A stretch of DNA of 63,843 bases, filler included, from Dugesia japonica (GCA_001938525.1; 7 parts of 7 records of this genome joined end to end with filler, not necessarily neighbours in it); one strand, 5' to 3'; shown: positions 292-43,981, counted from the whole stretch's first letter. Translations and numbers: made by a program. The notes: generated by a model not told the origin, from the sequence alone.

Positions 292-3200
292 CATCAATTT
301 ATCAGATTGTAAGCTCTGTTCATTTTCTTTCTCACAATTCTTCAATTCACCATTAATGATATCTAAAGCATTCTTTTGACTGATCACACGAGCATCCAAT
401 TTATTATATTCTTCAACAATTTCGTTCATCAAAGCAATAAAATCATCAATATCTTCAAATGTTTTTACAAATAAATTTTCTACATCAATTGTCACCAAAT
501 CACTAGTTGAAACGTTTTCAGAAATTAATGCTTTTTCCAATGAGAGAAGAAAATCTTTCATGGTAACTTTACTTTCCAAGTCTACTCTTTTGCTCTAAAT
601 ATTAATATTTACATATAATAATAGCTAAATGAAATATTATGAAACCTGAAGGTTTTCTAGAGTACCACTTATTTCCGAGTAATTAATATTTTCCTTCTCT
701 AATGATCCAAACTGCAATTGGATATCATTTAAATAATTATACAATTCCTGTGAAATTTCAAGTGCTTGTTTATATTTATCAGAAATGTCCATAAATCGTC
801 GTTGAGATTCATTAATCAACTCAATGTATTGAATGACACTAGTTTTTCTGTCTCTATGAGTACACTGTTGATCATCAAAATCATTGTTAATCAATTTCAT
901 TTGTTCTTCCAAGTTAAAAATTCTTTCAATTAGTTCGTTTCCAGTTTCTAAACCACCTATTAAATTTTCCAATGCTTCTTTTCTTAATTTAATTAAATCA
1001 GGAGCAAGACTTGATTGTTGTGTTGAATTCTGAAGAGCTTTAATAGATTCTTTCAACCAAGTTTCTTGTTTCAATTTTGTTTCATCTAAATTTGATTTCA
1101 AATTTTCCACAATTTTCATCAATTTTGTTTCCTCGTCGTTCAATAACGTCCTTAGTTTTCCATCGAAATCTTCTAAATTATCCTTCAATTTTACATTCTC
1201 AGAACAATGGATTTTCTTTCCCAAATCGATAGTATCTTGTAATAATTTGAAACATATCTCTCCAATTTTATTTAGTTTTTTACAGAGAATTTCAGAATGT
1301 TTGTATTTATCCACACAATCAATAGATTTAGGCGATGGTTCATTAATTAACTCTATCAGTTGATTCTCTAAATTTAAGACCTCTTTCTCTATATTTAAAA
1401 TGTTTCCTATTAAATTTGTAAAATGTTTTCTAGCTTCAATAAGTTTTTCACTACCATTTGAAATGAGTTTTTCAAAACTCGGATTATCTATAGAAATTGG
1501 TTTCACAATATTTTCAAATTCTTTTTCAATGCAACCCAACATTTCATCAATTTTTGTAAATGAAATGTAACCATTATCTTCAACTAAAAATAAATGAAAC
1601 ATTTTCAATTTCTCCATGATTTGATTTAAATTGTTAATAGTATTTTCCTTTGCAATTTTTTCTTCTAATAGTAAGTTAATTTTCTTTTCTAACAAATCTT
1701 TTGACTTATTAAGATTGTCTGATAACATTTTTATTTCACTGATATGTTGTTGTTGTTCATGACAATACAGACCTTCTTTAACAAGGCGTGTTTTTATTAC
1801 TGATAACTTAGTGATTAGATTTGTTAAGTCATTTAAATAAATTTCCAATTGATCTCGATCATTTATATTATCAATACTTTTGTATTTTATTGATTCTTCA
1901 ACTACAGCCTCTAAATCTTCAAATAATCCAAACAAAGTTACTGATTTTCTGTCAATTATATTTTGTATTTCCAAAAATTCCTTAACGACTTGAGATTCCA
2001 TTACTTTCAATTCAGTTTTAGTATTTTCTTTTAGAGAATTTTCAAACGAATTCATATGTATTTGAATTGAATCGATTTTTTCTTTAATTTCTTCTGAAAA
2101 TTCTTCAATTTCTTTTCGAAATAAACATTCCTTTTCACCGCTGTCAATATCGATTAGTCTTCGAATACCATTTTTAATATCATTGAACTGAGTAAGCAAT
2201 TCATTTTTTTCAATTAAAATATTTTCTTCATTATTGAGAGTTTGCAGAAAATTCTCTGTTTCATTTATCCAAATACTATACGAATGACTCAAGTCAACAG
2301 TTTCTTGACAACAAATTTCATTAGATAAATTATTTTTTAAATTTATCAAATTTTCCAAATATTCCTTCAACGATTTTCTGAGTTCTTCAATTTCATCAAT
2401 TGTTACGAAATTTCCTTCGATCCATGTACTCATTTTATGAACATGATCTATTCGTCTTATTTCATTTAATTTCAAATTTTCATTCAGACTATTAATAACT
2501 TTTTCAATTTGATTTATTTTCACATTTTCCATTTCAATTTCTTCCTTAAATTGTTCAACATTATCTAATTCTGTTCCGTTTTCTTTCACTATAAAATCTA
2601 TCAAATATTTAGCCTGGGAAACATAATTAATTATATCTTTCAATGATTTATCACAATTATCACCATAGATTATCTCGAATATTCGATGAATTTCGTCAAA
2701 TTGCAATTTTATATTTTCCAATTCAATTTCTCTTGATATTCTACGTTTTATATTTTCAATTTTCAAATCGATATCTTGTTTTACAAACAATTGATTTGTA
2801 CTTTCTTTAAATTTGTTATCAATGATCACCCCATCTAATTCTGGACATTGGAAATGATTTTTCAATTCTTCTAATTGTTGTTTTTTATCTTTACTAGTTG
2901 ACATATTTACCAAAACATTGTTTAGCTTATCTTCAACATCCTCGACCAATTCTGACGTTGTAAATAAAATATTTTTATTATGCTCCAGTTTAATTAAATA
3001 ATCATCAAATATATTTCTAATATTTTCTGACATTGATTTACAGTCAAATAAATTCTGAATGATATCAACGAGAATTTCAGTATCTTTCCATTTCACTTCA
3101 AGATCTTCTAAAGAATTTAGATGATTTTTAATTCTATCCAATATAGAATCACTGTTTAGATTTTGATCACCACATTCTACTAATTCCTGTAAATTTTTAG

Positions 3201-6200
3201 CTTCAGTTTTACATTTTTCCAATTCTTCAATAAATTGCTTTCTTATTTTTATAGTTTGTAAATTTTCAGAAATAATTTTAGAATTGTTTAATAATTTATC
3301 AATATTTTCTATATCGATTAATTTCGATTTTTCCAATTCAATTCTATCAGAAGAAATATATTCATTGGAATTATCAGGTTTTGACAGTTGATTCTTAGAT
3401 TCTAATAACTGATTTTGAATGTCAATAATAATTGTATCATTTTCAATATTCAATTCCAAATCGTTCTTTATATTTTCTAGATGAGCTTTATGAGAGTCTA
3501 TTGTTAATCTATTTGTTTCGTAAATCGATAAATTCTTATCAAAATCATCTTTCATTTCAACGGATATTTGGTGTATTTTATTTAATTGTTCATTGATTTT
3601 ATTGATTTTACTCGAAATTTCTTCAGGTAAAAGAAACTCTGAAAAAATCGGATTATTCTCTATTTCATTATTTAATTTATTCATTTGTACTGTTAATTCA
3701 TCGATTCTTCTGTTGATTTCTTCAATTTTTAAAGGTGATTCTACAGAATATAACCTTGTTGTTAAATTATCGATTTCATTTTGAAATTTATCAAGATTTG
3801 TATAAATTATTTGCAACGAAGTTTCTTTTTCTTTCTCTTTTTCAATTTTTCTATTTAACAANNNNNNNNNNNNNNNNNNNNNNNNNNNNNNNNNNNNNNN
3901 NNNNNNNNNNNNNNNNNNNNNNNNNNNNNNNNNNNNNNNNNNNNNNNNNNNNAAAGTTTTCATTTGTTCTTTTAATTCATTTAATTTATCTAGCTTCGAT
4001 TTTAAATTTTCTAAAGTTTCAAGGTTAATACTATCAATCAATATCCCATGAAGGTCATTTATTTGATTCAATTCTTCCTCTTTTTCTTTAATAAAGTTAT
4101 CAGTACTTTTTTCAATAACCATCAAGTTTTCCATTAAAGAGTAAACATTATTGATTTCTGATTGGCATAGCTTTGCATTAGAACTATCAAGAACAGAAAT
4201 TTCTTCAATTATTTCTTTCAATTTCTTTATTAAATTATCATTTTCATTTATGCATTTTAATATGTCACTTAAATTCATTGGATCATTTTTTTCTTTTGAT
4301 TTATCGAGTGTGTTTTGAAAATTCAATAAAACATTTTCTTTAATAGTTTTAAAATCACTCAACAAATGTTGAACTTTTTCTTCAGTATTTCGGATTTCTG
4401 TTTGCTGATTTTTAATTTTCAAAATAAAATTTTCCAGTTGTTTTATTACGTTTTTACATTGTTTGCATAAATCATGGATTTCAGAAACATTCAGTGAATT
4501 TCCACAAATCTCAGCATCATTATGAATATTATGAATATTTTCAATTAAATTCTTTATTTCTTCTAATCTGTTATTAAGCATTTCCATATTGGAATCAAAT
4601 ATAGATTCTTGTTGTTTAAATTCAATTTCATCCGATAATTTCTCGNNNNNNNNNNNNNNNNNNNNNNNNNNNNNNNNNNNNNNNNNNNNNNNNNNNNNNN
4701 NNNNNNNNNNNNNNNNNNNNNNNNNNNNNNNNNNNNNNNNNNNNNNNNNNNNNNNNNNNNNNNNNNNNNNNNTTTAAACTTTTTGATTGTATTTCAATTA
4801 GTTGACCAATATCTTTATTGATTTCTACAATCAATAATTCAATATCATTTACTAATGAATGAGAAGATTTAAAAATCGAATCAAGATTTTTGGAAATTCT
4901 ATTAGAAATCGATTTCACCTGTTCAGAAATATTAATCAATTTATTTTGCAAATTATTAAATATCATTTGTTTTTCCATTTCAATTTCCAATCTCGAATTT
5001 ATAGAATCATTAAAATGACTGATTTTTCCATCGATTATTTTTGCTTTGTTAAGAAATTCATCAATTTCATCAAATTTCGGATAGATTTTATTGATTACAA
5101 ATCCAATCAATTTATCTAAATTTTGGATTTTCTCTTTTTTGATTTTCAATAATTCCAATAAATCGATTTTTGAATTTTCAATTGGTTTATCTTCTTCATC
5201 TTTTATTAATTCATTATATTCTTCAATTATCTCATCGATTTTTTTATTTCCTTCTTTGATTATTTCAACAATTTCATTATACTTCTCTTTGAAATTATTC
5301 AACAATAACTCAATAGACTTTATAACAGGTTCACAAGTTACACTTTGTTTTAAATCAAAATTTTCAATCTTTTTCATGGTTTCATTTAAAATTATCAAAT
5401 TTTCTACTGAATTTTCCAGTTTTAGTTTCATTTCATTAATATTTGATAATGTTTCGTTTTTATCAATTTGTAAAAGAAAATTTGATAAACTTTCAATTGT
5501 GAAATTTTTAATATCATTAAAATTCTTTATTAAACTATTCAATTGATCTTGATCATCTTTAATTTTTTTAAATTGTTTTTCAATGTCTTGACTCATTTTT
5601 TCTAATTTATCAATTGTTTTAATACATTCATCTAGTAAACTTTCTATTTCATGAAATAACATAGATTCTTTACAGGTTGCTATTTGATCCTTAACTGCAT
5701 TGACATTGTTTAACATAATATTGATTTCATCAAATCTTTTGTTAAGTACTAATAAATCCATTTCGGAAATTAATTCATGCTCCAAAAAATCGATTTCATC
5801 AGAATATTTATTTAAATTTTCTCTACAATTTTGATATTGATTGAGTGATAAAATTATCGGATTAATTAGAGTTTTCGTGGAATTTATACATTGATCAATA
5901 TCTGCTGAAATAGCATTTTGTGTTACGGTTATTTCATCATTGAAAATAGGACTATTAAAATTGAGATTGTTTGATTTAATTTCTATAATTTCATTTATAC
6001 TTTTCTCTACGGTTTCTAGAGATAAATTTATATTTGAAAATAATGAATTTTCATTATGAACAGCTTCTTTTAAATATTCATTATTTTGATTGATTTTATT
6101 AATTATTAATTTTACATTTTCGTAAATTCTTCTCAACTCATCTTTAATATTATGGAAAATATTTTGATTTTCTATTTCAATTTCTATTCGGCAATTTATC

Positions 6201-9200
6201 CAATTATTATTTTCACTGATATTTACAGAGAGCACTTGAGCTTTATTAAGAAAATCATTAATTTCTACAAAATTTGGGTAGTTATTATTTAATATTTCAC
6301 TGAGTTGTTGATCTAAATTTTCAGTATTTTCTTTCATTATTTCTAAATCCTTCAATAAATCGATTTCTTCTTTGTNNNNNNNNNNNNNNNNNNNNNNNNN
6401 NNNNNNNNNNNNNNNNNNNNNNNNNNNNNNNNNNNNNNNNNNNNNNNNNNNNNNNNNNNNNNNNNNNNNNNNNNNNNNNNNNNNNNNNNNNNNNNNNNNN
6501 NNNNNNNNNNNNNNNNNNNNCTTTTCACAATTTAAAATTGATTTTGGATCTAAGTTAACGATATTATTTATCATATCTTTCATAACATTTAGATTATTAT
6601 CAGCGAAATCTAATGATTTCTCAATTGTTTCGAAATTTAAAATATCCTTCTTTTCATTGATTTTTGTATTTATTTCTACCAAATGATTGGATGTAGCATT
6701 TTTTATATTAATGAAATTAATTAAAAGATTTTGTAATTGTTCGTAGTCATCTTTTACTTTCTTTTGCTGAATTTCAATTTCCAATTTCATTTGATTTAAA
6801 TTTTCTTTATTCATAGCACTTTGATCAAATAAATCACAAATCTCTTGAACATTAATTGAGTTTCTACAAATTTCTAATTGGTTCTCAACATCCAAAACAT
6901 TACTCATCGTATTTTCGATTTCTTCTAATCGTTGATCCATATCTAAAATTGGATTGTTTTTTAAATAATCAATATCTTCAGTACATTTTTCGACATAAAA
7001 TCTCAAATTTGGATATTTATTCAACAAATCATTAATTGGTCCCAATGATGATTGCGTTGTGTTGATACAATTATTGATATTTTTCGATAGATTTGTTTGA
7101 ATGAGTGTAAATTTATCATTGAAAATAGGACTAACAAACGATAGATCATTGTTTTGAATTTTGAAAATTTTTTCTAAATCCATTAAAATTTTCTGCATTT
7201 CATCTTCAATATTATTTATTGAATTTTCAGGAGAAACTATTAAAATTTTTAATTGATCAATTGATCTATTAATATTATTAGAAATCAATTCCAATTCCGT
7301 ATTTAAATCCATTAATTTACTGTAATTTTCCATTGTAGATTTTATTTTATCTAAATCAACTAAATGTTTTTGTTGTTTTTCATCCAATTTATTTAAGAGT
7401 TTTCCATCATCATTTAAAAATTCTTCATTGATTTTATATTTAAAATTATCGATTTTATTTAATTGATTTTGGACATCATTCATCGCTTGTTTAATTAAAC
7501 TTGAAATGTCCTCGTTTTGAGATAGAGATTCATTCGTTAATGAAATTGTCGAATCACATGTTTCGATAACTCTATTAACCAACTCAATTTTTTCTTCATA
7601 ATTCTGATAATGATTTGATAATTTCAACTTCAAATTTTCAATAATATTATCTAATTCTGCAAAATTTTCATTGGGAAAATTAATTTTACAATTTTCTAAT
7701 TCAGATACTTGACAGTTCATTTGTTCTTCAAGTTGTTTTAATAATTCATAATTGTTTTCAATGACCTCTTTATCACTGTTTTCCCAACAAACCTTTTCAA
7801 ATTTATCGAGATATTCATTAAGACTACTTGTCAGTTCTATCCGTTGTTTTGTTAGTTGATCAAGTTTCTTTTTCTCTGTAGTAAATAAATGAATGTTTTC
7901 TTCTACAATAGTCTCGGTTATTTTCAATTCATTTTTCAAATTTTCAAATCTATCTTCAATGATTGATGACAAAGTCATTTGATTTCTTGAGAAATTTTCT
8001 TTCAAAATTTCCAACGATTCTTCTAATGGTAAAATCTGTTTTTGTAAATCGACAATATTTTTTCTTTGATTTAGTAATTGATTTTCATTATCTATCGGTT
8101 GATTTTTTATTTCCTTTTCAAAATTACTTTCCAAATTACTCAAATTTTCAACAAATACTTTACAATTTTCCATTAAATCGATTTTAGCAACACATAATTC
8201 TGAAATTTCCAAGCAATTTTTCAATGTTTTTTCAATTTGTTTGATTACTTTTTCATGAGATTGACAATTTGGAAATTTTTCCAGATGATTTTTGGATATT
8301 TCAGTATCGGATTTAATGGTTTCTAATTGTACTAAAGACGATTGTAGAAGAGAAATGATATCGTCAGCATATAATTGATTATCTGAATTTGTAATATCAT
8401 CAAATAATTGTAAACTAATACTATTGATAATTTGATTATTGCGCTCATTTTCCTGTTCGATTATTATTCCAAATTTCAAATCGATATTGTGATTAATATT
8501 TGTAATTTTGTCTTTGACAATATCGATTCCGGGATAAATATTAAAATTTTTCAAAAATTCTTTACCTTCTACAGGAATTATATCAATTAATTCAATTTCT
8601 TCAATTTTTTCTGTTGATTCATTAAGAATATTTTTTAATTCCAACATTTTTTCAATATTATCCATATTTATAAATTCAGTGGTATTTTCCAGATTTTCTA
8701 GTTTCGATAAATAAAAATTGATTTGATCCATTTTTACTTTATAATTGATTTCTACAGTTTGCATTATTGAATACATTTTGTCTAGATTTTCTATTGATAA
8801 ATTAGCATCTTTAAGTAATGGAACTTGGTCTTTTAATAGATAAATACAATTTTCTACAGAATGACAAAGTGGATAGATATCATTGGCAATTTCACAACAA
8901 AGTTCTTTCCATTTTTTAATGTCTTCAAGGGATTTAATATCAAATATACTCTGCTCTAATATATTCAGATTTCTTTGGGTATTTAATAAATTATCTGCAA
9001 TTTCTTTAACATCGGATTCATTAAAAATTTGATTATTGTCTTCATCAAAACTAGAATGAGCTACAACGATTTTCCTTAGGTTTTCATCTAATTTTTCCAA
9101 ATTATTATCAATTGAATTTTGGCATAGGTTTTTCTCTTCCAAAAGAACTGATTTAGCTTTATCAAGTGGAATTTTAATTATAGATTGTTTGAGTTCAGCA

Positions 9201-9870
9201 ATATCTGTTTCAATATTCAATACACAGTTTGATAGAATATTCTGAACAATTCCGATATTTAATTTCTTCACCGCTTCTTGTTTAAGTTCATCTAATTTTT
9301 CGAACTTTTCTTGACAAAAGTTTGACAGAAAATCTGTATAATCACGACTAAGTTGAGATTCATTTTGAGACTGAGTATTATAAATGAATTCTATTGATTT
9401 CTGAGCTTGAAGAAGTGTAGGATTCAGCATTTCATTTGATTTGATAATGTTCGGAACGATTGTTTCTTGTAGGTTTTCTACTGTCGCTTCTAAAATATCG
9501 ATTTCTTTTGTTATTGACAATCTTGTATTAATTAAAAATTTATTGTGTGTTAACACTTCAATTGATTTTGATTCAGCTAATTCACAGAGCTGTTGAATAT
9601 TCTCAATTGTAGGTAAAACCATATTGGCAATAGTTGGGTCTTTCAGTTCTAGTTCTGTGAATTTCGATTTAGTATTTTCTACCAGTTCTCTGTACATTTG
9701 TTGAATTTGTTCTACAATTCGTTCTTGTTGTCTTAGTTCCCCCAAAAAAATGTTTTCTTCTCCAATCGATATTAAATCAAATCGCTTAATTTGCGATTGA
9801 AAATCTCTAATCTTTTCCGTTTCATTTTCAGCTTCTTCTTTGAGTTTTATTGCCTGCGAAATGTTTGATC
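292..9870 (-). CDS. Internal exons of a giant coiled-coil / spectrin-repeat-like protein (nesprin/ANC-1/spectraplakin-like; family not resolved)
   Basis: ORFs 4628-9904 and 637-4587 join across the N gap 4646-4771 (…EKLSDEIEFKQQESIFDSNMEML…). Inferred exon 9870-646 (acceptor ttttag at 9871, donor CAG|gt at 645), 51-nt intron 595-645, exon 594-292 (SKRVDLESK…DKLM|gt). Over 3000 codons rich in E/K/N/I/L heptads with internal repeats. No CH or KASH domain visible. Confidence 0.8.
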
Positions 9871-10125
9871 CTAAAAATGTTAGCAACATTAAAAATGGAT
9901 TCAATAATATCTAAATTTTGACATTTTTATGTNATTATTTCTTGCAATACTTTGTTCTTTTGTATTAGCAAAAGCTTATAAAATTAATCTGAAATTCTAA
10001 TCGACAATTTTTTATTTACAATAATTTAAATGAGTATAACATTAGTATAAAATAAAATTTTATTCGAATTTTGGTGAAAAAACTAATAAAAATACCTTGT
10101 AAAATGAAAATATAAAATAATAATA

Positions 10126-21057: not shown

Positions 21058-23165
21058 CAAGGGGCTCAAAGGTTTATGTATGGGGGAACCATTTTTGAAA
21101 ATGTTAAAATACTGAAAAGCCACAAAATTTTCAACATAAACTTCAATTGAAATTTATTTTTATTGCTATAATTAATTAATAACTAAACACATTACTTTTT
21201 AAATTTTATACTATTAACAAATTTATTAAATACAAAGAAAACTTCAATAATTACATTTAAAAATTATTTGTAAAATCTGAAATATGTGTCCAAAAATTTA
21301 TCGTTTTTGCTTAACGAGAATTTTCAAATCGGGTTCATAATTTGTTAGATATGTCTTTAATAATTCAGTTAAATGGATATATGTTAGCTGTGAACGATGT
21401 TTATTTTTAACAAATTTTATAGTTGAATAAAATTATTTACAATTATAAGTGGTTCCGAATATAGACAATATTCGAACCACGAAATTAATTAAATTTGGAT
21501 ATTTGGATTCCGAAACAAGTTTCCAAAAGTCTATTATGGATTCTATTGATTTGTGCTCGATGATTATTGCTTCATCTGCCTGAATTTCTATCAACTCTAA
21601 TTTCAAGTTTGCAGAATTAGAAAGGATGACCTCAAGTATATTAAATCGTTCTTCAATAACATCCACTAGAAATGGATTTAAGAAAATTTTTATAGAAAAT
21701 TTCAAAGTTTTCAAATCTGAAAATCTCGACTTGAAACCTGAAAACAATTCTTTCAATTTATTTTGATATTCACTTAATTTTTCATTTGAAATTTTAAGTT
21801 GACTTTCTTTTAGACGAGGAAAATAATTTAAATCGTTAAAGATCAAATCTTTTTCATAAATTTGAATTTTCTTTTGAAAACTAAAAATTGTGTGGCACAG
21901 ATTGCTGACGAGTTTTTCTTTACCTTGTAATTCCAAATTCAGATTTTGTAAATGTTGCATGAAATCTGATAAAAAAATTATATCTAGTTTCCAATTATAA
22001 TTATTAAAATTACATAAAACATTATTTATCTGTCCTATAGTATATTTTTTGCTTTATCCGTTTTTTTGCTTCTTCTAGTAATTTTGTTTTATTTTGAAGA
22101 TAACAAGTAATTGGATTTAGTAGTTCTAGAAATTTATTTAATACATTATACGTGGATAACAACCTGACGATGTAATAAAAAAGCACACCATTTGAAATAT
22201 ATTTGTCTCAGGATTCAAAAAATTTTTAAACTGATGATGATTTTTTGCATTAGCTCGTATATAATTAATTGCATAGAAAACAGTATTCATGACATTTTAA
22301 TATTTGAAGTGCTTGGTAATGAGTTGTTCTCGATGCAATATGCAGTGTACTGAAAGATATTTGGGTATATTATGATATTTTATAAAGAGTCCTGTAAAGC
22401 CATTTATACTTCCTACCATAGCAGGAGTACCATAAGTTGCAATGCTTACCAATTTGTTAATAGGAATATCAAAATCGATTAACATTTTATCAAATGAATT
22501 TTTATTTTCGATACCGCGAGTTAATTCTTTAAGAGAAACTAAATCCAATAATTCTTCTTTTATAGTTATATCAGATAAAATAAAACGTATAAAAACCGCT
22601 AACTGTGGAGTACCATTAATATAAGTTGACTCATCTAGGGCCAAACTAAAGGCGTTATAGTTTTTAATATCAATTTTAAGTTTTTCAACTTTATCTAGAC
22701 ATATATCTGTAATACGTCTTTCTACAGTGGATCGAGATGTGGGAATTTTTGATATTTTTTTTATGTAATTTTGAATTCTCAGGATTTATAATTTTAACTA
22801 TATTTTTCAAATTTTTCTTAATAAATTCTCCTTCTATATATGGACGTTTGCCTCGTGTGATATTCCATGCCATGACATAACTTGCTTCCTTTAAATTGTC
22901 ATCTACATTGTTGAAAATGGAGAGAAAAAATTGTTGTTTCTCGAGTTCATTTTTAAATAGTTTAATTTTATCTTTTTTTAACTTTGTTTTTTCAGGGGAT
23001 GTGGAGTGGAAATCGGTGTGAATTGCATGGTAGTGCCTTCATAAATTTCAAAATTGAAAATGCATAATGGTTTTCCATTATTATTTATGAACAAAAAGTT
23101 TTGTTCCCACTTTTCATTAAAACTTCGTTTCTCTTCTTCATATTTTCTTTTTTAGCCTTATCCAT
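21058..23165 (-). mobile_element. Decayed hAT transposon, Charlie/SPIN (GTF2IRD2/EPM2AIP1-like) transposase
   Basis: RSFNEKWEQNFLF, LALDEST…QLAVFIR, HCILHREQL, HLQNLNLELQG, SIFGTTYNC motifs with stops and frameshifts; TIR-like CAAGGGGCTCAAA at 21058. Confidence 0.9.
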
Positions 23166-23231: not shown

Positions 23232-24342
23232 TTATATGGAGAAGATGCCGTAAATTTCGTGAGTTTTATGCTAGATTATTATATGTATGGTAAGGCCTAT
23301 GGATGGCCAGAAAAAATCATGGTAATTCGATTGCCATTATATCTAAAAAGAACTGCTAGAGATGCGTACTGTCAGTTAGAGGCTTCGCAATTGGGTAGCT
23401 AGGCACATTGCAAAGATGCATTAGTCGAAAAATTAGTTAGTGAAGATGTGGGTAGAATTATGAGAAAGAAATTCTTTAATCGAGTACAAAATGAAGGAGA
23501 GTCGGTGAATGAATTCGCTTTTGAGTTGAGTACTTTAGCCGAGAAAGCCTTCAGATTGCGAGAAAACTAGGGAGATCATATTAAAAATATTTTTGCAAGA
23601 TCAATTTCTAATGGAAGCACAATCAAGTAATAGAACAGCGCTTAGTTTAGTAGATTATCAGGATTTTGATGATCTCGTTAAAAAAGCCAGACGAATTGAA
23701 GTAAATTCTGCGGCGACAACAAAAGCTCCTACAGTAAATTACACTGAGACGGCAAAATTTCAGAGACCTGAACCAGAAAGTCCAAATTTTAGAAAAGGGT
23801 CAAATTTCAAACCAAGAACATTTAATCCACCGTCGCCAAGGAATAATAGACCATCTCCAAAATATGAGAGAAATAGCAATTTTCAACAAAACGCGTTAAA
23901 AAGGACAGTGAAAGGTTTTAGGTGTCAACTTAAAGGACATACTGCAAATCAATGTCTTACAAAATTGGGTAATGGAGGAAATCGTGAAAGCAGGAGAACA
24001 ATACAATGTAATAATTGTGGACGAATTGGACATTTATATAGAGATTGTTACGCTCCAAAGTCGCGTTGTCCATCAACCTCTCCATCTCCGCAAAGAAATA
24101 CATTAAATTCCAAAGGCCAACAACAATGTTATTCATGTCAGAAATATGGTCATATTGCAAGATCATGTCCAAATAATGTTGATCGATTCCAAAAACCAAT
24201 TTTAAAGAAATCAGTCAAAATTGATAACAATCCTAGAGTTAATTCCACCTTTTCCCCATATAATCATGAAAGAATAAAATTTGAGGCAGAATTAGATGAA
24301 ATGAGACGAAGGACTCAGATAGCGATAACGAAAACTCAATGA
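23232..24342 (+). pseudogene. gag: Gag: capsid plus three CCHC zinc knuckles
   Basis: KAYGWPEK…LPLYLKRTARDAY…RVQNEGESVNEFAFELSTLAEKAF (major-homology-like region); knuckles (C>G)FRCQLKGHTANQC, CNNCGRIGHLYRDC, CYSCQKYGHIARSC. Confidence 0.9.
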
Positions 24343-24672: not shown

Positions 24673-24886
24673 GTATATGTAGTGTTTATTGATAACAATG
24701 GAGATAAACTTACAAAACCTATTAGTGCTTATAGTACAGTCAGAGACTTATTTCAGATGATTGGTGAATCCAAGGAATTGAAAATTGTGAAAATGAAATT
24801 TGCTAATNAAACTTTGGAGGATATAGATGCTTATATTGTGGATCTAGAAATGATCCCCGGAATGGAAAATGAAGTTACGATTTTAC
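24673..24886 (+). pseudogene. Ubiquitin-like (beta-grasp) domain within the retroelement polyprotein
   Basis: VYVVFIDNNGDKLTKPISAYSTVRDLFQMI…MKFANxTLEDIDAYIVDLEM…EVTIL parallels ubiquitin IFVKTLTGKTITLEV…TIENVK…LIFAGKQLEDGRTLSDYNI…TLHL; same frame as the zinc-knuckle ORF. Confidence 0.55.
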
Positions 24887-25627: not shown

Positions 25628-25888
25628 GGATTGGCATTTCTAATTCAGCAAATGGGAATTTATATTTCAGTTGATTATCAAAATATGGGCGATATGATTG
25701 AAGAAGTATTGAAAATAATCCTAAAATATATGTATCCGTTTGTCCAAAAACCAGGAGGCTGGGAATTTCTGGGAAACGTGAGAAAAATCGAACGAAAAAG
25801 TTCTATGTTTTCAACGGGATTCAGAGGTGTCTCACCGTGGTTAATAATAATGATTCTTACGATTGGGTTGGTAAATTACACAACTTCG
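25628..25888 (+). pseudogene. Bcl-2-like C-terminal half (BH2) plus hydrophobic anchor
   Basis: GLAFLIQQMG…IILKYMYPFVQKPGGWEFL resembles the BH2 motif (WIxxxGGWxxF) with Bcl-2-like spacing from the post-BH1 AF, followed by a basic linker and PWLIIMILTIGLV; BH1 would fall in the N gap 25524-25626. Confidence 0.55.
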
Positions 25889-28008
25889 TTAACAGCATAT
25901 GACTGTTCACAAACTGAATTAGGAAAAGTTTATTCTTTAGTTGATGTAGCAGAATGTCCAGAAGCCCACCAATTGAAACTGAAAACTGAGGAAAATGTAC
26001 CTTATTATATCTATCAAGAGTTAGGATTTTGTCGGACAACAGTTAGAGAATGCATAGTTAAACGAACAACTTTTATCTTTTATTGTGAAAAATGGAGTCA
26101 TTCATCATTGATATAGTTTAAATCAATGCCTAGGCCAGTGGACATAACGCAAGAAAATTGCGAATCGGCTTTTTAGACTAAAGAGATTAAAATTAATGCA
26201 GAAATTAAACTATCTGCTAAAAAGAATTTTATTATCCGATAATCATTTACAGTAAAAAGGAAGCTTATGAGTAATGGAGATTGTACTGGAGAACCTTATA
26301 AAATTGGGAATAATATTGTTGATAAAGTAATGGTAGTTGAAGAGTACTCGACTGAGTTACGAGAATTTGAAGGGACTTTTAAAGATGTAACAGGAAAATT
26401 ACAAACTCATGCGTTTTGTGATATATATAGCACTAGCTGTCATACAGGAAAATCTATGCTTGTGTATAAAGTTAAAGTAAAAGAATGTAATTTAGCTTAA
26501 TTGAGACAGACAGAGTTTATTGAAATTACTGGAGAGCAATTTAAAATTAATCTAGACGTCTCTAATTTCCCCAAGGATAAGGGAAACAGCAGTAGACAAA
26601 CATTACCTGTTGAAAAAAGTAAAACACAAACTGTGCTGGTGACATTAGTAAAAGAAGAAGTTATGAGATTTATTAGAAAGGATCCAATTGTGAAATGTGG
26701 TAAAACATTGTATGAAACGAATTATAAAAGGGTGTATGTGTCAAAAACAAAAATGGAAGATGCAAAAGAGAATATACATGTTTCGGAAGTAAAGCTAACA
26801 CAATATTTTAATAATAAGATAGACTTTCTTTTTCATTTTCATACTAAAACAATATCAAACATATATAGTGAAATAATACTAAATGACTGTAAATCAAATA
26901 GAGAAATTTTACGGAATCGGATGGCAATGGTAATGAATAATCCAAATGTGGTTGCACCTTTGCTTATAGTTGAAAATTGAGTATTTGCTCGAGTAATGAG
27001 GAAAGTATTATATAGCTACAAATGTAAAGAGGTGTCAGTCAAACTAATGAAATATGATGAGTGTACTAACGGATTGCCAGTCAACGTAGGTGGAATGTTG
27101 AGATTCATGGAACCTATAACAAGAGTCTTATTAGATAAAGATACAAAACCAAAAAATTGTATTGCAATCGATTATAAGCACCTTTGTATAAATTAACTCC
27201 AGATACGTGAATATCACTGCCGGATCGAAAGCAAGTTAAAAAACCGGAAAAACTGGAAATGACAAAATTAGACTATTTACTAAATTTTACAGCATTGGGA
27301 AAATTGTCATCTTCAGGAATCTATTCAACTGAAAACATTGAGAACGCGAGACGGAATTTGCTATTCCCATCAAAAAGAGAAAGAATTATAACGGAATTTG
27401 TAGACAGGATACTACCTAGTAGAGCGGAAAGTGTAAATTACGATTATTTATTCTCTCCAGATCATTACAAAAAAACTACTTTAAATACTATGAAAAATAT
27501 ATGAGGACATTTTTTGTATTTTGGACAAGTAACGTCCAGCTTTATTGGAGGGTATTTGTTATGGAAATTCTCAAGAGTAGTGATTTCTTACGTATTATCT
27601 ACGTACAGATTATATACCATGTTTGGGCTTTCATTGAAATTAATTGTGGGATGTATACCATTCCTTGCAAAATTTTTAATAATTACTCACCAATTTAATG
27701 AAATGAGGAGGATAAAGGAGCAAGTTTCGAGTAGCAAACAAAATAAAAGGAAAAAGAAACACATAAATCGGAATAAGCATGTCAAATTCCAAGATAAAAC
27801 TGACGATAGTAGCAGTACCGAGAATGATAACACTAACAGTGCAAGTACTAGTGGTACATTGAACGTGGATAATGTTGTAAATAGCACTCAATCGTTATTT
27901 TCAGTTGAGGATTGGAACACTTATAAAATAAAACGTATTCCAGAGATGATTAAAGATCCAAATTACTATCAATCTCAGCCACCATGTTATCCAATGGGGT
28001 CATTATAA
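25889..28008 (+). pseudogene. env: Chuvirus/Jingchuvirales-like envelope fusion glycoprotein
   Basis: AYDC…SLVDVAEC…VREC…YC.KWSHSS, GDCTG, KCG…ETNY, YFNNKIDF, YKCKEVSV…CTNGLPV…FMEPITRVL, SGIYS…RRNLLFP, then hydrophobic segments FGQVTSSFIGGYLLW…MFGLSLKLIVG; several stops and one frameshift near 27155. Confidence 0.8.
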
Positions 28009-28107: not shown

Positions 28108-28290
28108 GTGTTGATGAAAATCGCAAATTTCGGCAGACAACCAAAAATCACAGTGCAATTAAATGGAATTTCTATAAAAGCAATACTAGATTCAGGTTGT
28201 AGTGTAACTATTATTTCAGAGGAAATTCTAGATCCAGGAGATCTAGTTAATATGACAACTACAGAAGAAATAATTCGATCAATGTCAAAA
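28108..28290 (+). pseudogene. Retropepsin-type aspartic protease, N-terminal part
   Basis: PKITVQLNGISIKAILDSGCSVTIISE (DSG at 28189-28197), same frame as the Env C-terminus; homology is lost after ~28290. Confidence 0.85.
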
Positions 28291-28611
28291 ATGCTAAAGA
28301 TTTGGTTGTTGTTGGACAAAAACTTGGTCTTTATATTGTCTAAAAGACTTATGAGGTTGGATGCATGGTTTGTCTTAGAAGTGTGGTAGCGCCAAGAAAC
28401 AGTGGTATGAGTTATCGTGTGGTGTTTTTTGGGGGTTGTAGGTTTGTATGTGGTTGGGTTAGGGTTATAGGTATGTGATTTTCATTGTATGTGTGAGTAG
28501 ATGGATAGTGGCAGTCCTCACCACGCACACATTTAGTACCCCCCCCCGCCGTGACGTAACGTAATGAAATTTAATCCTAATGTATTTAGTTGGGAATTTA
28601 AAAATTGCATC

Positions 28612-29573: not shown

Positions 29574-30835
29574 TCAAACAAAATCATTGAATAATAAGTA
29601 TTTCTCAAAGAATTGATCTTCCATTAATTGATCAATTGTTGCTCTCTTTTTTGGTTCTTTTTTCACACAACTATCGATAAAATTGAATAAATATTCTGGT
29701 TGGTTTATTCTAGTTTTATCATATTCAATTGTCTGTGATTCCTTGATCTTTTGAACTATTTCAGATTCTTTTAATCGAGGAAATAATTGACCGTCTTTAA
29801 TTAAATAATAAAATAAATAATAATCAATATAATAATCACGTGTGATAATTTCTATCATAATAACACCAAGTGACCACACATCAACACTCGCATCATAAGG
29901 TTTACTTTCCAATATTTCTGGTGCAACATATGTCAAGATACCATCTCTATGTTTACATTTATCAACGTCTTCATCATCAAGATGATTCAAATATTCAGTC
30001 ATATTGAAACTTAATAATTTGACATCACGATTGCCATCAATCCAAATATCGATTGCTAATATAATCATTATACTTCATTTACATAATTAATAATATTACG
30101 ATTCAAGTCTTTCATAATTATATTATGATTGTGCAAATGTTTCAGCCCTGCTAGGATCTGATATGCCCATTTAGATATTTCATATGTTGATGTTTCATAG
30201 TTTACAAGAAAGGTTTTCATTGGTTTCTTCATTAAAAAATAGTTATTAATAAATATCATAATTTATACGAACAAATGCAACCTTTGTCGCATTCTCCATT
30301 TCTATATAGACACGGTTTTTACCAATATAAATATCAAACAGTTTCATAAATCTTGAATGAGATTTGGTTATTTTAAACATTTGTAAATCGTCTATCAAAA
30401 TCCTTGATAAATCGTTATTATGTGCATTTTCCATGTATTTCATGTCGTATCCTTTCAACAAGGCTGGCCTAATTTTGTTTGTCCGAGTAAACAGATTAAT
30501 AGGATCAAAATCACTCAGTATTTGAATATCTTTATCTTCATCTAAACTATATTTTATAATTAATTTTTAATTTATAATAAATATTAATTAATTAAATGAT
30601 TAATAAATACACACCTTTTGAAATAACAAAATTCCACCAATGATTTACTATCAATATTATATTCATAAATGAATTTATCATTTTGCAGTACTGTTTTATT
30701 TAAAAATATAACAAAATCATTGGTTGCCATTTTGTGTTGTATTTTCTGAATAGATTTGTTGATAATGTTTGATACTTTTTCGGATTTTGAGAATTCAATT
30801 GATATTGTTTCTTTATCAGTGAAAATTGATTTCAT
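29574..30835 (-). CDS. Ubiquitin-like domain + Ser/Thr pseudokinase, multi-exon; 5' end uncertain
   Basis: Introns 30542-30612 (donor uncertain), 30227-30281, 30056-30099 and 29795-29839 restore one frame: ALLK…EMENAT…YQILAGLKHLHNHNIIMKDLNPIDIWID…VKLLSFN…GILTYVAPEIL…DVWSLGV…PKKRAT. First exon TISIEF…VLQNDKFIYEYNIDSKSLVEF is Ubl-like. Confidence 0.75.
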
Positions 30836-42875: not shown

Positions 42876-43981
42876 TGGCGTCAGAAGCTGAATTGGTTAT
42901 TGTAAAAAACTAAAGCATTAAATCGTAACTAAAGAAGAAGCGCCTATCACTGTTTTATCTAGATGAATACCGATAGGACTTGGGGATAAAGTTGATAATT
43001 TAGTTGAAGATTTATTAAAAAAGAAATAATCAGGAAAAGACCGTGGAATGTACCTTTAGTGTGTATCACTAAGGCAATGGTGGCATATTATTATGTGCAG
43101 ATTACCGGCAGTTAAACTTAATCACAACCAGACCAATATATCCAATTCCAGAAACTNATCAGCTTTTTGATGCACTGGGTGGAGCAAAGATATTTAGCGT
43201 TTTAGACTTATTTAATGGATAATATAATGTCGAAGAAATAAGGTGGCTAAAAAACAGCATTCTTTACTAGAAGAGGGCAGTATGAATTTAATAGAATGCC
43301 ATTTGGCCTGAGTTCAGCCCCAGCAATATTTCAACGACTTATGCATCTGATATTGCAAAATGAAAATTGGGAACAATGTTTTATTTATCTGGACGATGTT
43401 TTGATATTTGGAAACTTGTATGAACAACATCTCAGTCGATTGGAAGTAGTTTTAGTTATAATAGAAGAATTGGGAGTTGAATTAAAACCTACAAATGTAA
43501 TGTTATGCTAAAGGAAGTTTCGTATCTGGGACATAGAATTACGATAGAAGGTATAAAAAATAATCTAATAAAGATAGAAAAGTTCAAAATTGGTCAAAAC
43601 CAGGGTGTTACTCAAATCTACATTCTTTTAAAGCTTTCTGTAAATATTATAGAAAATTTATAAAAGATTTCGCGTACGTCGTTCAACCTTTAGAAACTAT
43701 ACTGAAACAAGACAAACAAAGAATAAATGAGAAATAAAGCAATAAACCAATAATTTTGGATGCTGAAGGAAAAAAAGCATTTTAAAAACATACAGGAACT
43801 TTTAACAACAGCCACAGTTATATCTTATCCTCTTAAAGAAGGTATGTTCATATTAGACACAGATGCAAGTCACAGTCATATTAGATGAATCTTAAGCTAA
43901 TTTCAAAATGGAGATGAAAAAGTCATCGCATATACGTCGAAGAAGCTGACAAATTCAGAATTGAAATATTGTGTTACTCGC
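42876..43981 (+). mobile_element. pol: Ty3/gypsy remnant: PBS-like site, reverse transcriptase and RNase H
   Basis: CA|TGGCGTCAGAAG PBS-like; CADYRQLN, MPFGLSSAPAIFQR, YLDD, FILDTDAS, VIAYTSKKL; many stops and frameshifts. Confidence 0.9.

Follow-up and report, generated by a model that had tools for sequence, protein, structure and literature searches.

Introduction

Can one hydrophobic helix be both the tail anchor of a Bcl-2-like domain and the signal peptide of an envelope glycoprotein (Env)? The question is raised by a retroelement copy in the genome of Dugesia japonica (GCA_001938525.1), in which the 24 residues encoded at 25835-25906 on the plus strand, translated here exactly as they had been quoted in a preliminary description of this DNA, stand between a BH2-like segment and the first Env motif. 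That description proposed that signal peptidase would release at this point a membrane-tethered Gag-Ubl-Bcl-2 product (Ubl, ubiquitin-like domain) and a lumenal Env whose cytosolic tail carries Pro-Pol, in the manner of flavivirus or alphavirus polyproteins. How proteins are made by retroelements whose env lies between gag and pol in the same frame is unaddressed in the parts of the literature covered here. We have compared the locus with unbroken relatives from public collections, and discuss below what the helix belongs to, where it would be cut, and what may become of the domain ahead of it.

The element copy in Dugesia japonica

The window, that is, the whole stretch of 63,843 nt that was analysed, is AT-rich, animal-like DNA with a GC content of 18-31%. 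Pfam, tblastn and profile searches place in it, in this order and all on the plus strand, a Gag-like region, CCHC knuckles, a weakly matching Ubl, a Bcl-2-like domain, the helix, Env and a piece of protease. What remains at the locus is a decayed, truncated member of a multi-copy family of gag-env-pro(-pol) retroelements that have Ubl and Bcl-2-like domains ahead of a herpes-gB-type Env. The capsid-like region of Gag, broken by stops, lies at 23253-23552 (tblastn with the relative P0007, E 2.7e-13; Pfam Retrotrans_gag, E 0.0027, below the cut-off), followed by two CCHC zinc knuckles at 24007-24168 (24007-24048 and 24127-24168; Pfam zf-CCHC, E 5.7e-10) and by the Ubl at 24721-24885. A frame without stops (25628-26113) then holds the C-terminal half of the Bcl-2-like domain (25628-25765), which ends in the BH2-like PGGW (25751-25762), the predicted internal signal peptide of Env (25829-25888) and the first Env motif; the in-frame link between these parts was therefore correctly described beforehand. 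The Env ectodomain (25889-27519), which is Monjiviricetes/chuvirus-like with a herpes gB-type fold and contains stops and one frame change, matches Pfam PF24664 in two frames (E 1.1e-44 and 5.1e-30). One second frame encodes the hydrophobic region 27520-27684, made up of the Env membrane helix (27520-27582) and a second, Cys/Pro-containing segment (27628-27684), as well as the basic stretch of the Env tail, read from the sequence itself (27736-27762), and the protease motif ILDSGC (28183-28200). The latter belongs to the N-terminal part of an aspartic protease (28141-28296; Pfam RVP, E 0.0015, just below the cut-off), and the order of membrane region, basic stretch and protease is the one first reported.

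The copy at this locus is dead, with gag, env and the Env tail all interrupted by stops. Five stops occur in the first Env frame ahead of its end, the env frame changes near 27150-27190, one stop lies just 5′ of the membrane helix and two more between that helix and the protease, and a run of N covers the middle of the Bcl-2-like domain including BH1, which is unreadable in this copy. At about 28297 the copy is cut off inside the protease, where a higher-copy repeat starts; in sequencing reads this position is marked by 18 contigs with loose ends and by a jump in depth. It is because this other repeat starts here that no RT or integrase follows the protease. A repeat pair that could represent flanking LTRs was not found around the truncated copy. 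The broken frames, the N run, the weak Ubl and the lack of RT and integrase are caveats absent from the preliminary description. In one DNA run the env stretch recurs in 878 contig records, whose depths add up to thousands while some single contigs have about 10; the organism therefore carries many diverged copies of the family.

Other features surround the copy. The repeat that ends the protease (28297-28610) is GT-rich, has near 28540 a minus-strand G-run that resembles a polypurine tract, and is found again in part at 60173-60223. Just upstream of the gag remnant lie decayed pieces of a hAT transposase (21433-22785, minus strand; DUF4371, E 4.5e-5; Dimer_Tnp_hAT, E 6.6e-5), and a piece of a Pkinase domain is encoded at 29574-30074 on the minus strand (E 1.9e-19). 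Two very long open frames at 637-9910, also on the minus strand (1378 and 1760 codons, rich in E, L, I, N and K, coiled-coil-like, with no Pfam match above the cut-off), probably belong to a host gene for a rod protein, as large exons. Decayed RT/RNase H (43076-43978, plus strand) and integrase (15327-14860, minus strand) fragments are from other retroelement copies; as candidates for the Pol of the present copy they were rejected, being too distant or on the wrong strand.

Relatives and the identity of Env

Most of the relatives were taken from the best 150 of 1,369 listed matches, and word-based protein searches added 2, 1 and 3 proteins. Env starts were compared in those 30 of 157 collected proteins (the Dugesia japonica copy included) in which 15 or more residues precede the Env start motif; these 30 are cluster representatives at 50% identity and yet related, so that the counts given below overstate independence and the p-values are too small. 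They comprise 8 Bcl-2-bearing proteins, 10 without Bcl-2 that have at least 120 in-frame upstream residues, 8 that start at most 30 residues before the motif, and 4 left ungrouped.

Among the relatives, P0007 has Gag, Ubl, Bcl-2-like domain and Env in one frame, and P0010 a Bcl-2-like domain, Env and three proteases. A single ORF joins Env to protease, RT, RNase H and integrase in P0013, P0017, P0023 and P0028, with Gag as well in P0023, and the order of Pol domains in relatives is PR-RT-RH-IN; no Bcl-2-bearing protein extending to RT was found among the matches listed. The 'Pro-Pol' assigned to the Env tail is seen in these relatives only, and not in the Dugesia japonica copy. P0011 was modelled with AlphaFold from 38 sequences (mean pLDDT 75.6), and the model matches the gB of HSV-1 (herpes simplex virus 1) with E 5e-14 and chuvirus-like glycoproteins with E 1.8e-39. 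A sequence search of the PDB with the Env piece of the Dugesia japonica copy returned no match, nor did a scan of viral contigs with P0011. The Env tree (24 rows, 6 of the 30 proteins being too short) leaves 11 of its 21 inner branches open and does not fix whether Bcl-2 was gained or lost. It does group, with support 90/92, the Env of Bcl-2-bearing P0011 with that of P0012, a protein with Gag, a helical domain, Ubl and the full helix, and no Bcl-2 match.

Several further features of the relatives deserve mention. Between two and four tandem aspartic protease domains follow the Env tail in P0010, P0012, P0013, P0016, P0031 and P0042, an arrangement that might permit dimer formation within a single chain while it is still tethered to Env. 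After the integrase, and in the same ORF, P0013 (residues 2486-2740), P0017 (2257-2557) and P0028 (2780-3130) have a second hydrophobic pair, shaped like a signal peptide, lumenal module and membrane helix, with which the polyprotein would cross the membrane four times. A conserved helical domain of about 70 residues, for which Pfam has no name and which by eye we take to resemble the TFIIS N-terminal domain, is present after Gag in P0007, P0008, P0012, P0022, P0036, P0039 and P0053. It stands directly 5′ of Ubl in 6 of the 7, and a profile search did not detect it in the Dugesia japonica stretch; farther along from it, several relatives have a GRP(R/K) motif similar to an AT-hook. Finally, P0028 carries upstream of the signal helix, in the place of Bcl-2, a different passenger without Pfam match, the end of which, judged by eye, resembles that of a DEDD exonuclease.

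The ubiquitin-like and Bcl-2-like domains

A profile of three relatives finds the Ubl of the Dugesia japonica copy with E 0.016 against the collected proteins and with E 0.11 against six frames, where it is the only match under E 1, and relatives themselves match Pfam ubiquitin at E 0.0046 and 0.031. The Bcl-2-like nature of the domain upstream of the helix, as it had been proposed, is supported. With a profile of eight relatives that leaves out the Dugesia japonica copy, 25628-25765 is the only match under E 1 in six frames (E 6.6e-4), and a profile of eight sequences that includes it matches Bcl-xL over BH1-BH2 with E 2.4e-5. The model of P0059 is poor as a whole (mean pLDDT 50), with a core at about 70-83; in Foldseek its top rows are all of the Bcl-2 family, but at E 0.016 or worse, the level of E 0.001 never being reached. 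In a wide fold search Bcl-2-family chains hold the top 8 ranks, the best with Z 8.2 (rmsd 4.5, 116 aligned), a value that according to the tool is not decisive for helical bundles. A search of the ESM Atlas with the Bcl-2-like part gave no usable match. Together, these results support a real yet divergent Bcl-2-like domain.

In the register given by the profile alignment to Bcl-xL, the glycine of the BH1 motif NWGR is missing in all eight readable relatives, whereas the Lys/Arg is kept. Bcl-2 and Bcl-xL need this glycine in order to bind BH3, and an anti-apoptotic role is therefore not assured; canonical membrane-bound Bcl-2 activity of the domain appears doubtful. The domain resembles Bcl-xL and other proteins of the Bcl-2 family in its BH1-BH2 profile match, and differs from them in lacking the BH1 glycine (8/8) and in having its helix in an internal position, followed by a cleavage motif and Env.

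The helix as a probable signal peptide of Env

A hydrophobic core is found just upstream of the Env start in 30/30 proteins. In the Dugesia japonica copy it consists of 15 residues (25829-25873) followed by 5 polar ones (25874-25888), and the medians of the relatives are 14-15 and 5. Nucleotides 25888 and 25889 flank the proposed cut, which leaves T at -3 and S at -1, in agreement with the preliminary description. Small residues occupy -1 in 28 and -3 in 25 of the 30 proteins, against 10 at -2 and 3 at +1, the local background being 0.375. At this register both (-3,-1) rules hold in 28/30 proteins, and at the eight other registers from -8 to 0 in 3-10 of them; three residues later they hold in 21, partly because the search motif fixed a small residue there. 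The two proteins that fail the -1 rule, P0010 and P0074, both bear Bcl-2 and each have another possible site nearby. In the P0011 model a 15-residue helix (residues 125-139) is followed by a loop and by a first strand that begins at residue 146, the predicted mature start. What is directly observed is that the domains stand in this order, that the junction is in frame, that the n/h/c shape is conserved and that the (-3,-1) pattern holds.

In each of the ten relatives with 120 or more in-frame residues upstream and without a Bcl-2 match, the same helix precedes Env. It does so too in the eight proteins that start no more than 30 residues from the motif, such as the stand-alone glycoprotein P0108, where it is N-terminal. 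Core length (medians 14 and 15), c-region and hydrophobicity are alike in the groups with and without Bcl-2 (p 0.27-0.54, small samples). From these comparisons the Bcl-2-like domain is an optional insert, a passenger ahead of a helix that belongs to Env. An origin of the helix as a Bcl-2 tail anchor, or its retention on behalf of Bcl-2, gains no support from them, its length, hydrophobicity and cleavage signature being the same where Bcl-2 is lacking; such an origin is improbable. The helix is instead, with good probability, Env's own signal peptide, inherited with the glycoprotein, now enclosed in one Gag-(Ubl)-(Bcl-2-like)-Env-protease-(Pol) frame, and predicted to be cleaved internally, with Env lumenal and the protease cytosolic. 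The tests of signal and topology on which this reading is based are comparative, employing Kyte-Doolittle windows and the alignment and conservation of relatives.

Topology of Env and its tail

In each of the ten relatives whose ectodomain is whole, exactly 14 cysteines lie between the cut site and the membrane helix, which is what a lumenal domain with disulfide bonds would lead one to expect. Of the two hydrophobic segments at the end of Env, the first one (27520-27582) is the strongest hydrophobic window in 14/14 relatives, in which its KD19 (Kyte-Doolittle) score is 1.79-2.54, against 1.28 in the Dugesia japonica copy. The second segment scores below 1.6 in 13 of the 14, with Lys/Arg inside it in 13, the exception in score being P0031, where both segments are above the threshold and the second reaches 1.71. 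In the Dugesia japonica copy this second segment (2.13) outscores the aligned membrane helix, which goes against a reading with one span. The second segment (27628-27684) is probably amphipathic and on the cytosolic face; a single membrane span would place the Env tail and protease in the cytosol. N-glycosylation sequons did not separate lumenal from cytosolic parts. The proposal of an internal cleavable signal, a lumenal Env and a cytosolic protease thus gains support from comparison (the rule kept in 28/30, 14 cysteines, one span), while its Pol part draws on the relatives.

Proposed maturation and alternative readings

The maturation that may be envisaged begins with the ribosome making the Gag, Ubl and Bcl-2-like domains in the cytosol, after which the helix would engage the ER translocon and host signal peptidase would cut after the TTS-type motif. 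The gB-type ectodomain would fold in the lumen with seven disulfides, one membrane helix would stop transfer and so leave the tail, protease and Pol cytosolic, and the element's own protease would then free these three. After the cut, the Bcl-2-like domain would at first hang on the signal remnant, a state that nothing shows to last.

Other readings of the same junction have to be weighed. Env might be made separately, from a spliced RNA or from an internal start just 5′ of the helix, the fusion mattering only for Gag-Pol. This would suit a helix that is a complete ordinary signal peptide and would avoid the equal amounts of Gag, Env and Pol that synthesis from one ORF would force, and the Dugesia japonica copy does have a Met just upstream of the core. 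However, a Met within 12 residues before the core occurs in only 4/8 Bcl-2-bearing and 3/10 other relatives, so that an own start is not conserved, and a full-length Gag-Env-Pol product must pass the helix anyway; we consider separate synthesis decidedly unlikely. Two RNA runs yielded no splice joints, but with 5 and 112 reads, all less than 95% alike, they are too few to test splicing. Were the helix an uncleaved signal-anchor, Env would be held by two helices and stay joined to the upstream part until a cytosolic-side cut by the element's protease. This reading would accommodate P0010 and P0074, the two Bcl-2-bearing relatives that fail the -1 rule at the main register, as well as the two arrangements that the covered parts of one paper report, on the basis of DeepTMHMM, for the flanks of gB-type ectodomains: a signal peptide with a helix, or a pair of helices (PMC13524379). 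It has no need, though, of the (-3,-1) pattern that is kept in 28/30 proteins while -2 varies freely, and we hold it to be highly improbable. There is scarcely any likelihood that Env has two C-terminal membrane spans, with a lumenal protease and Pol that would hence be made from another RNA: despite the scores of the second segment in the Dugesia japonica copy (2.13) and P0031 (1.71), this segment remains under 1.6 in 13/14 relatives, contains Lys/Arg in as many, and is found in stand-alone glycoproteins too, and the in-frame RT and integrase need the cytosol.

The reading of the helix as Env's signal peptide is compatible with a dual use, in which after the signal-peptidase cut the helix would remain as C-terminal anchor of the Bcl-2-like domain, alone or joined to Gag, and would replace the tail of the captured Bcl-2. 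By topology alone the cut product would be tethered at first. The core begins 23-57 residues after the BH2 Trp and is always the next hydrophobic segment; the 23 residues of the Dugesia japonica copy come near the spacing in Bcl-xL, with which the profile alignment continues from BH2 to a Trp at the anchor, the residue that we take to open it. A Trp at the upstream edge of the helix occurs in 6/8 Bcl-2-bearing relatives against 1/10 others (Fisher p 0.013, post hoc and among related sequences). The spacer between BH2 and core nevertheless varies 2.5-fold, and the helix is neither longer nor more hydrophobic when Bcl-2 is present. As a lasting membrane anchor takes about 18-21 residues, a core of 11-17 is short for this role. 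True tail anchors are inserted post-translationally, whereas this helix is internal and would become C-terminal only after the predicted cut; it is found equally in 10/10 relatives without Bcl-2 and at the N-terminus of stand-alone glycoproteins. The BH1 glycine missing in 8/8 readable relatives also speaks against canonical activity at a membrane. Release of the tethered product, by signal peptide peptidase or by the protease of the element, is a further possibility. We therefore regard dual use as conceivable, while leaning against it.

Comparison with known systems

The proposed processing has counterparts among viruses. The flavivirus capsid anchor, the hepacivirus core signal and the foamy virus Env leader are glycoprotein signals with a second part to play, as the C-terminal tether of a cytosolic protein ahead of them or as a component retained in the particle. 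In flaviviruses and hepaciviruses the capsid is freed by a second cut, which signal peptide peptidase or a viral protease makes. Of the viral comparison drawn in the preliminary description, the flavivirus/hepacivirus part may be retained, whereas alphaviruses fit less well, their capsid cutting itself off ahead of the signal. The likeness to flaviviruses, hepaciviruses and foamy viruses is one of analogy only, with no sequence relationship. The nematode endogenous retroviruses (NERV) reportedly have a continuous gag-env-pro-pol ORF, and to our knowledge no Bcl-2 domain. Their Env precedes Pol (PMC13524379, in a passage citing Sacco et al., 2022).

The nearest description is that of the Burro/GYPSM1 giant gypsy-like LTR retroelements of planarians. 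According to the section that Arkhipova and Yushenova (2019; PMC6431247) devote to them, Gag with CCHC knuckles is followed by Ubi2/SUMO-like, BCL2-like and mononegavirus-like Env domains and then by the protease, env being placed between gag and pol in the same frame. The same order of Gag with CCHC, Ubl, BCL2-like domain, Env and PR is found here, in the Dugesia japonica copy with a weak Ubl and in P0007, P0008, P0010 and P0022 between them. The distance from Gag to protease is, however, about 5 kb, unlike the 4,873-aa ORF1 given for Burro in that section (PMC6431247), and the MATH/TRAF, BIR and ankyrin domains of the giant Burro ORF (about 4,900-5,100 aa) have no Pfam match here. We take the element for a compact Burro-like retroelement of gag-env-pol order with a gB-type Env, and keep it apart from Burro proper since the giant ORF and the extra domains are absent and RT is missing. 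The Burro section is silent on signal peptides, topology and processing (PMC6431247).

GAG-ENV-POL errantiviruses with HSV/gB-type Env are described from Platyhelminthes, Nematoda and Bryozoa in the covered parts of Chary and Hayashi (PMC13524379), and share with the present family the gene order, the gB-type Env, an ectodomain that lies between a signal peptide (or a helix) and a C-terminal helix, and the multi-copy state. The order gag, env, protease/pol is found up to the protease in the Dugesia japonica copy and up to the integrase in four relatives, and the HSV/gB type of Env is seen in the PF24664 match and in the match of the P0011 model to HSV-1 gB (E 5e-14). The words 'Bcl' and 'ubiquitin' do not occur in the main text of that paper, and its covered parts contain no discussion of processing (PMC13524379). 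A precedent for RNA-virus-style glycoprotein processing in a one-ORF LTR element is Atlas virus, a hookworm belpaovirus with a single Gag-Pol-Env polyprotein, whose glycoproteins are predicted, in the portion covered, to be released by cellular proteases (PMC9094657). Unlike here, its Env comes last and is of class II (phlebovirus-like), the virus belongs to the BEL/Pao lineage, and Pol is off the Env tail, as far as the same portion describes it (PMC9094657). Anakin elements, likewise from a partial source, combine a chuvirus-like glycoprotein with a Pao element (PMC7642597). The literature search yielded on Burro only the 2019 review, and turned up no account of internal signal peptides in such elements or of how their proteins are processed, although Sacco 2022, Grohme 2018 or Figure 5A of PMC13524379 may already state the topology.

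Implications

The domain layout itself is already published, as the covered parts of the two papers have it, for Burro (PMC6431247) and for gag-env-pol errantiviruses (PMC13524379), and this known layout, together with the dead state of the copy, limits the surprise. What the comparison adds is a precise predicted cleavage site and topology, testable for the whole group. A bolder possibility, which we offer as rather unlikely, is that an enveloped particle is built from one membrane-threaded polyprotein. The remnant of the Env signal would stay on Gag as a tether in place of matrix, the Env tail would carry Pol into the particle, and a captured Bcl-2 would, in one branch, use the same helix as its anchor. 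If this were true, each Env made would come with a regulator of cell death or immunity placed on the ER membrane. Should the remnant tether Gag or the Bcl-2-like domain, this would be a mode of assembly, for a reverse-transcribing enveloped particle, unlike that of retroviruses.
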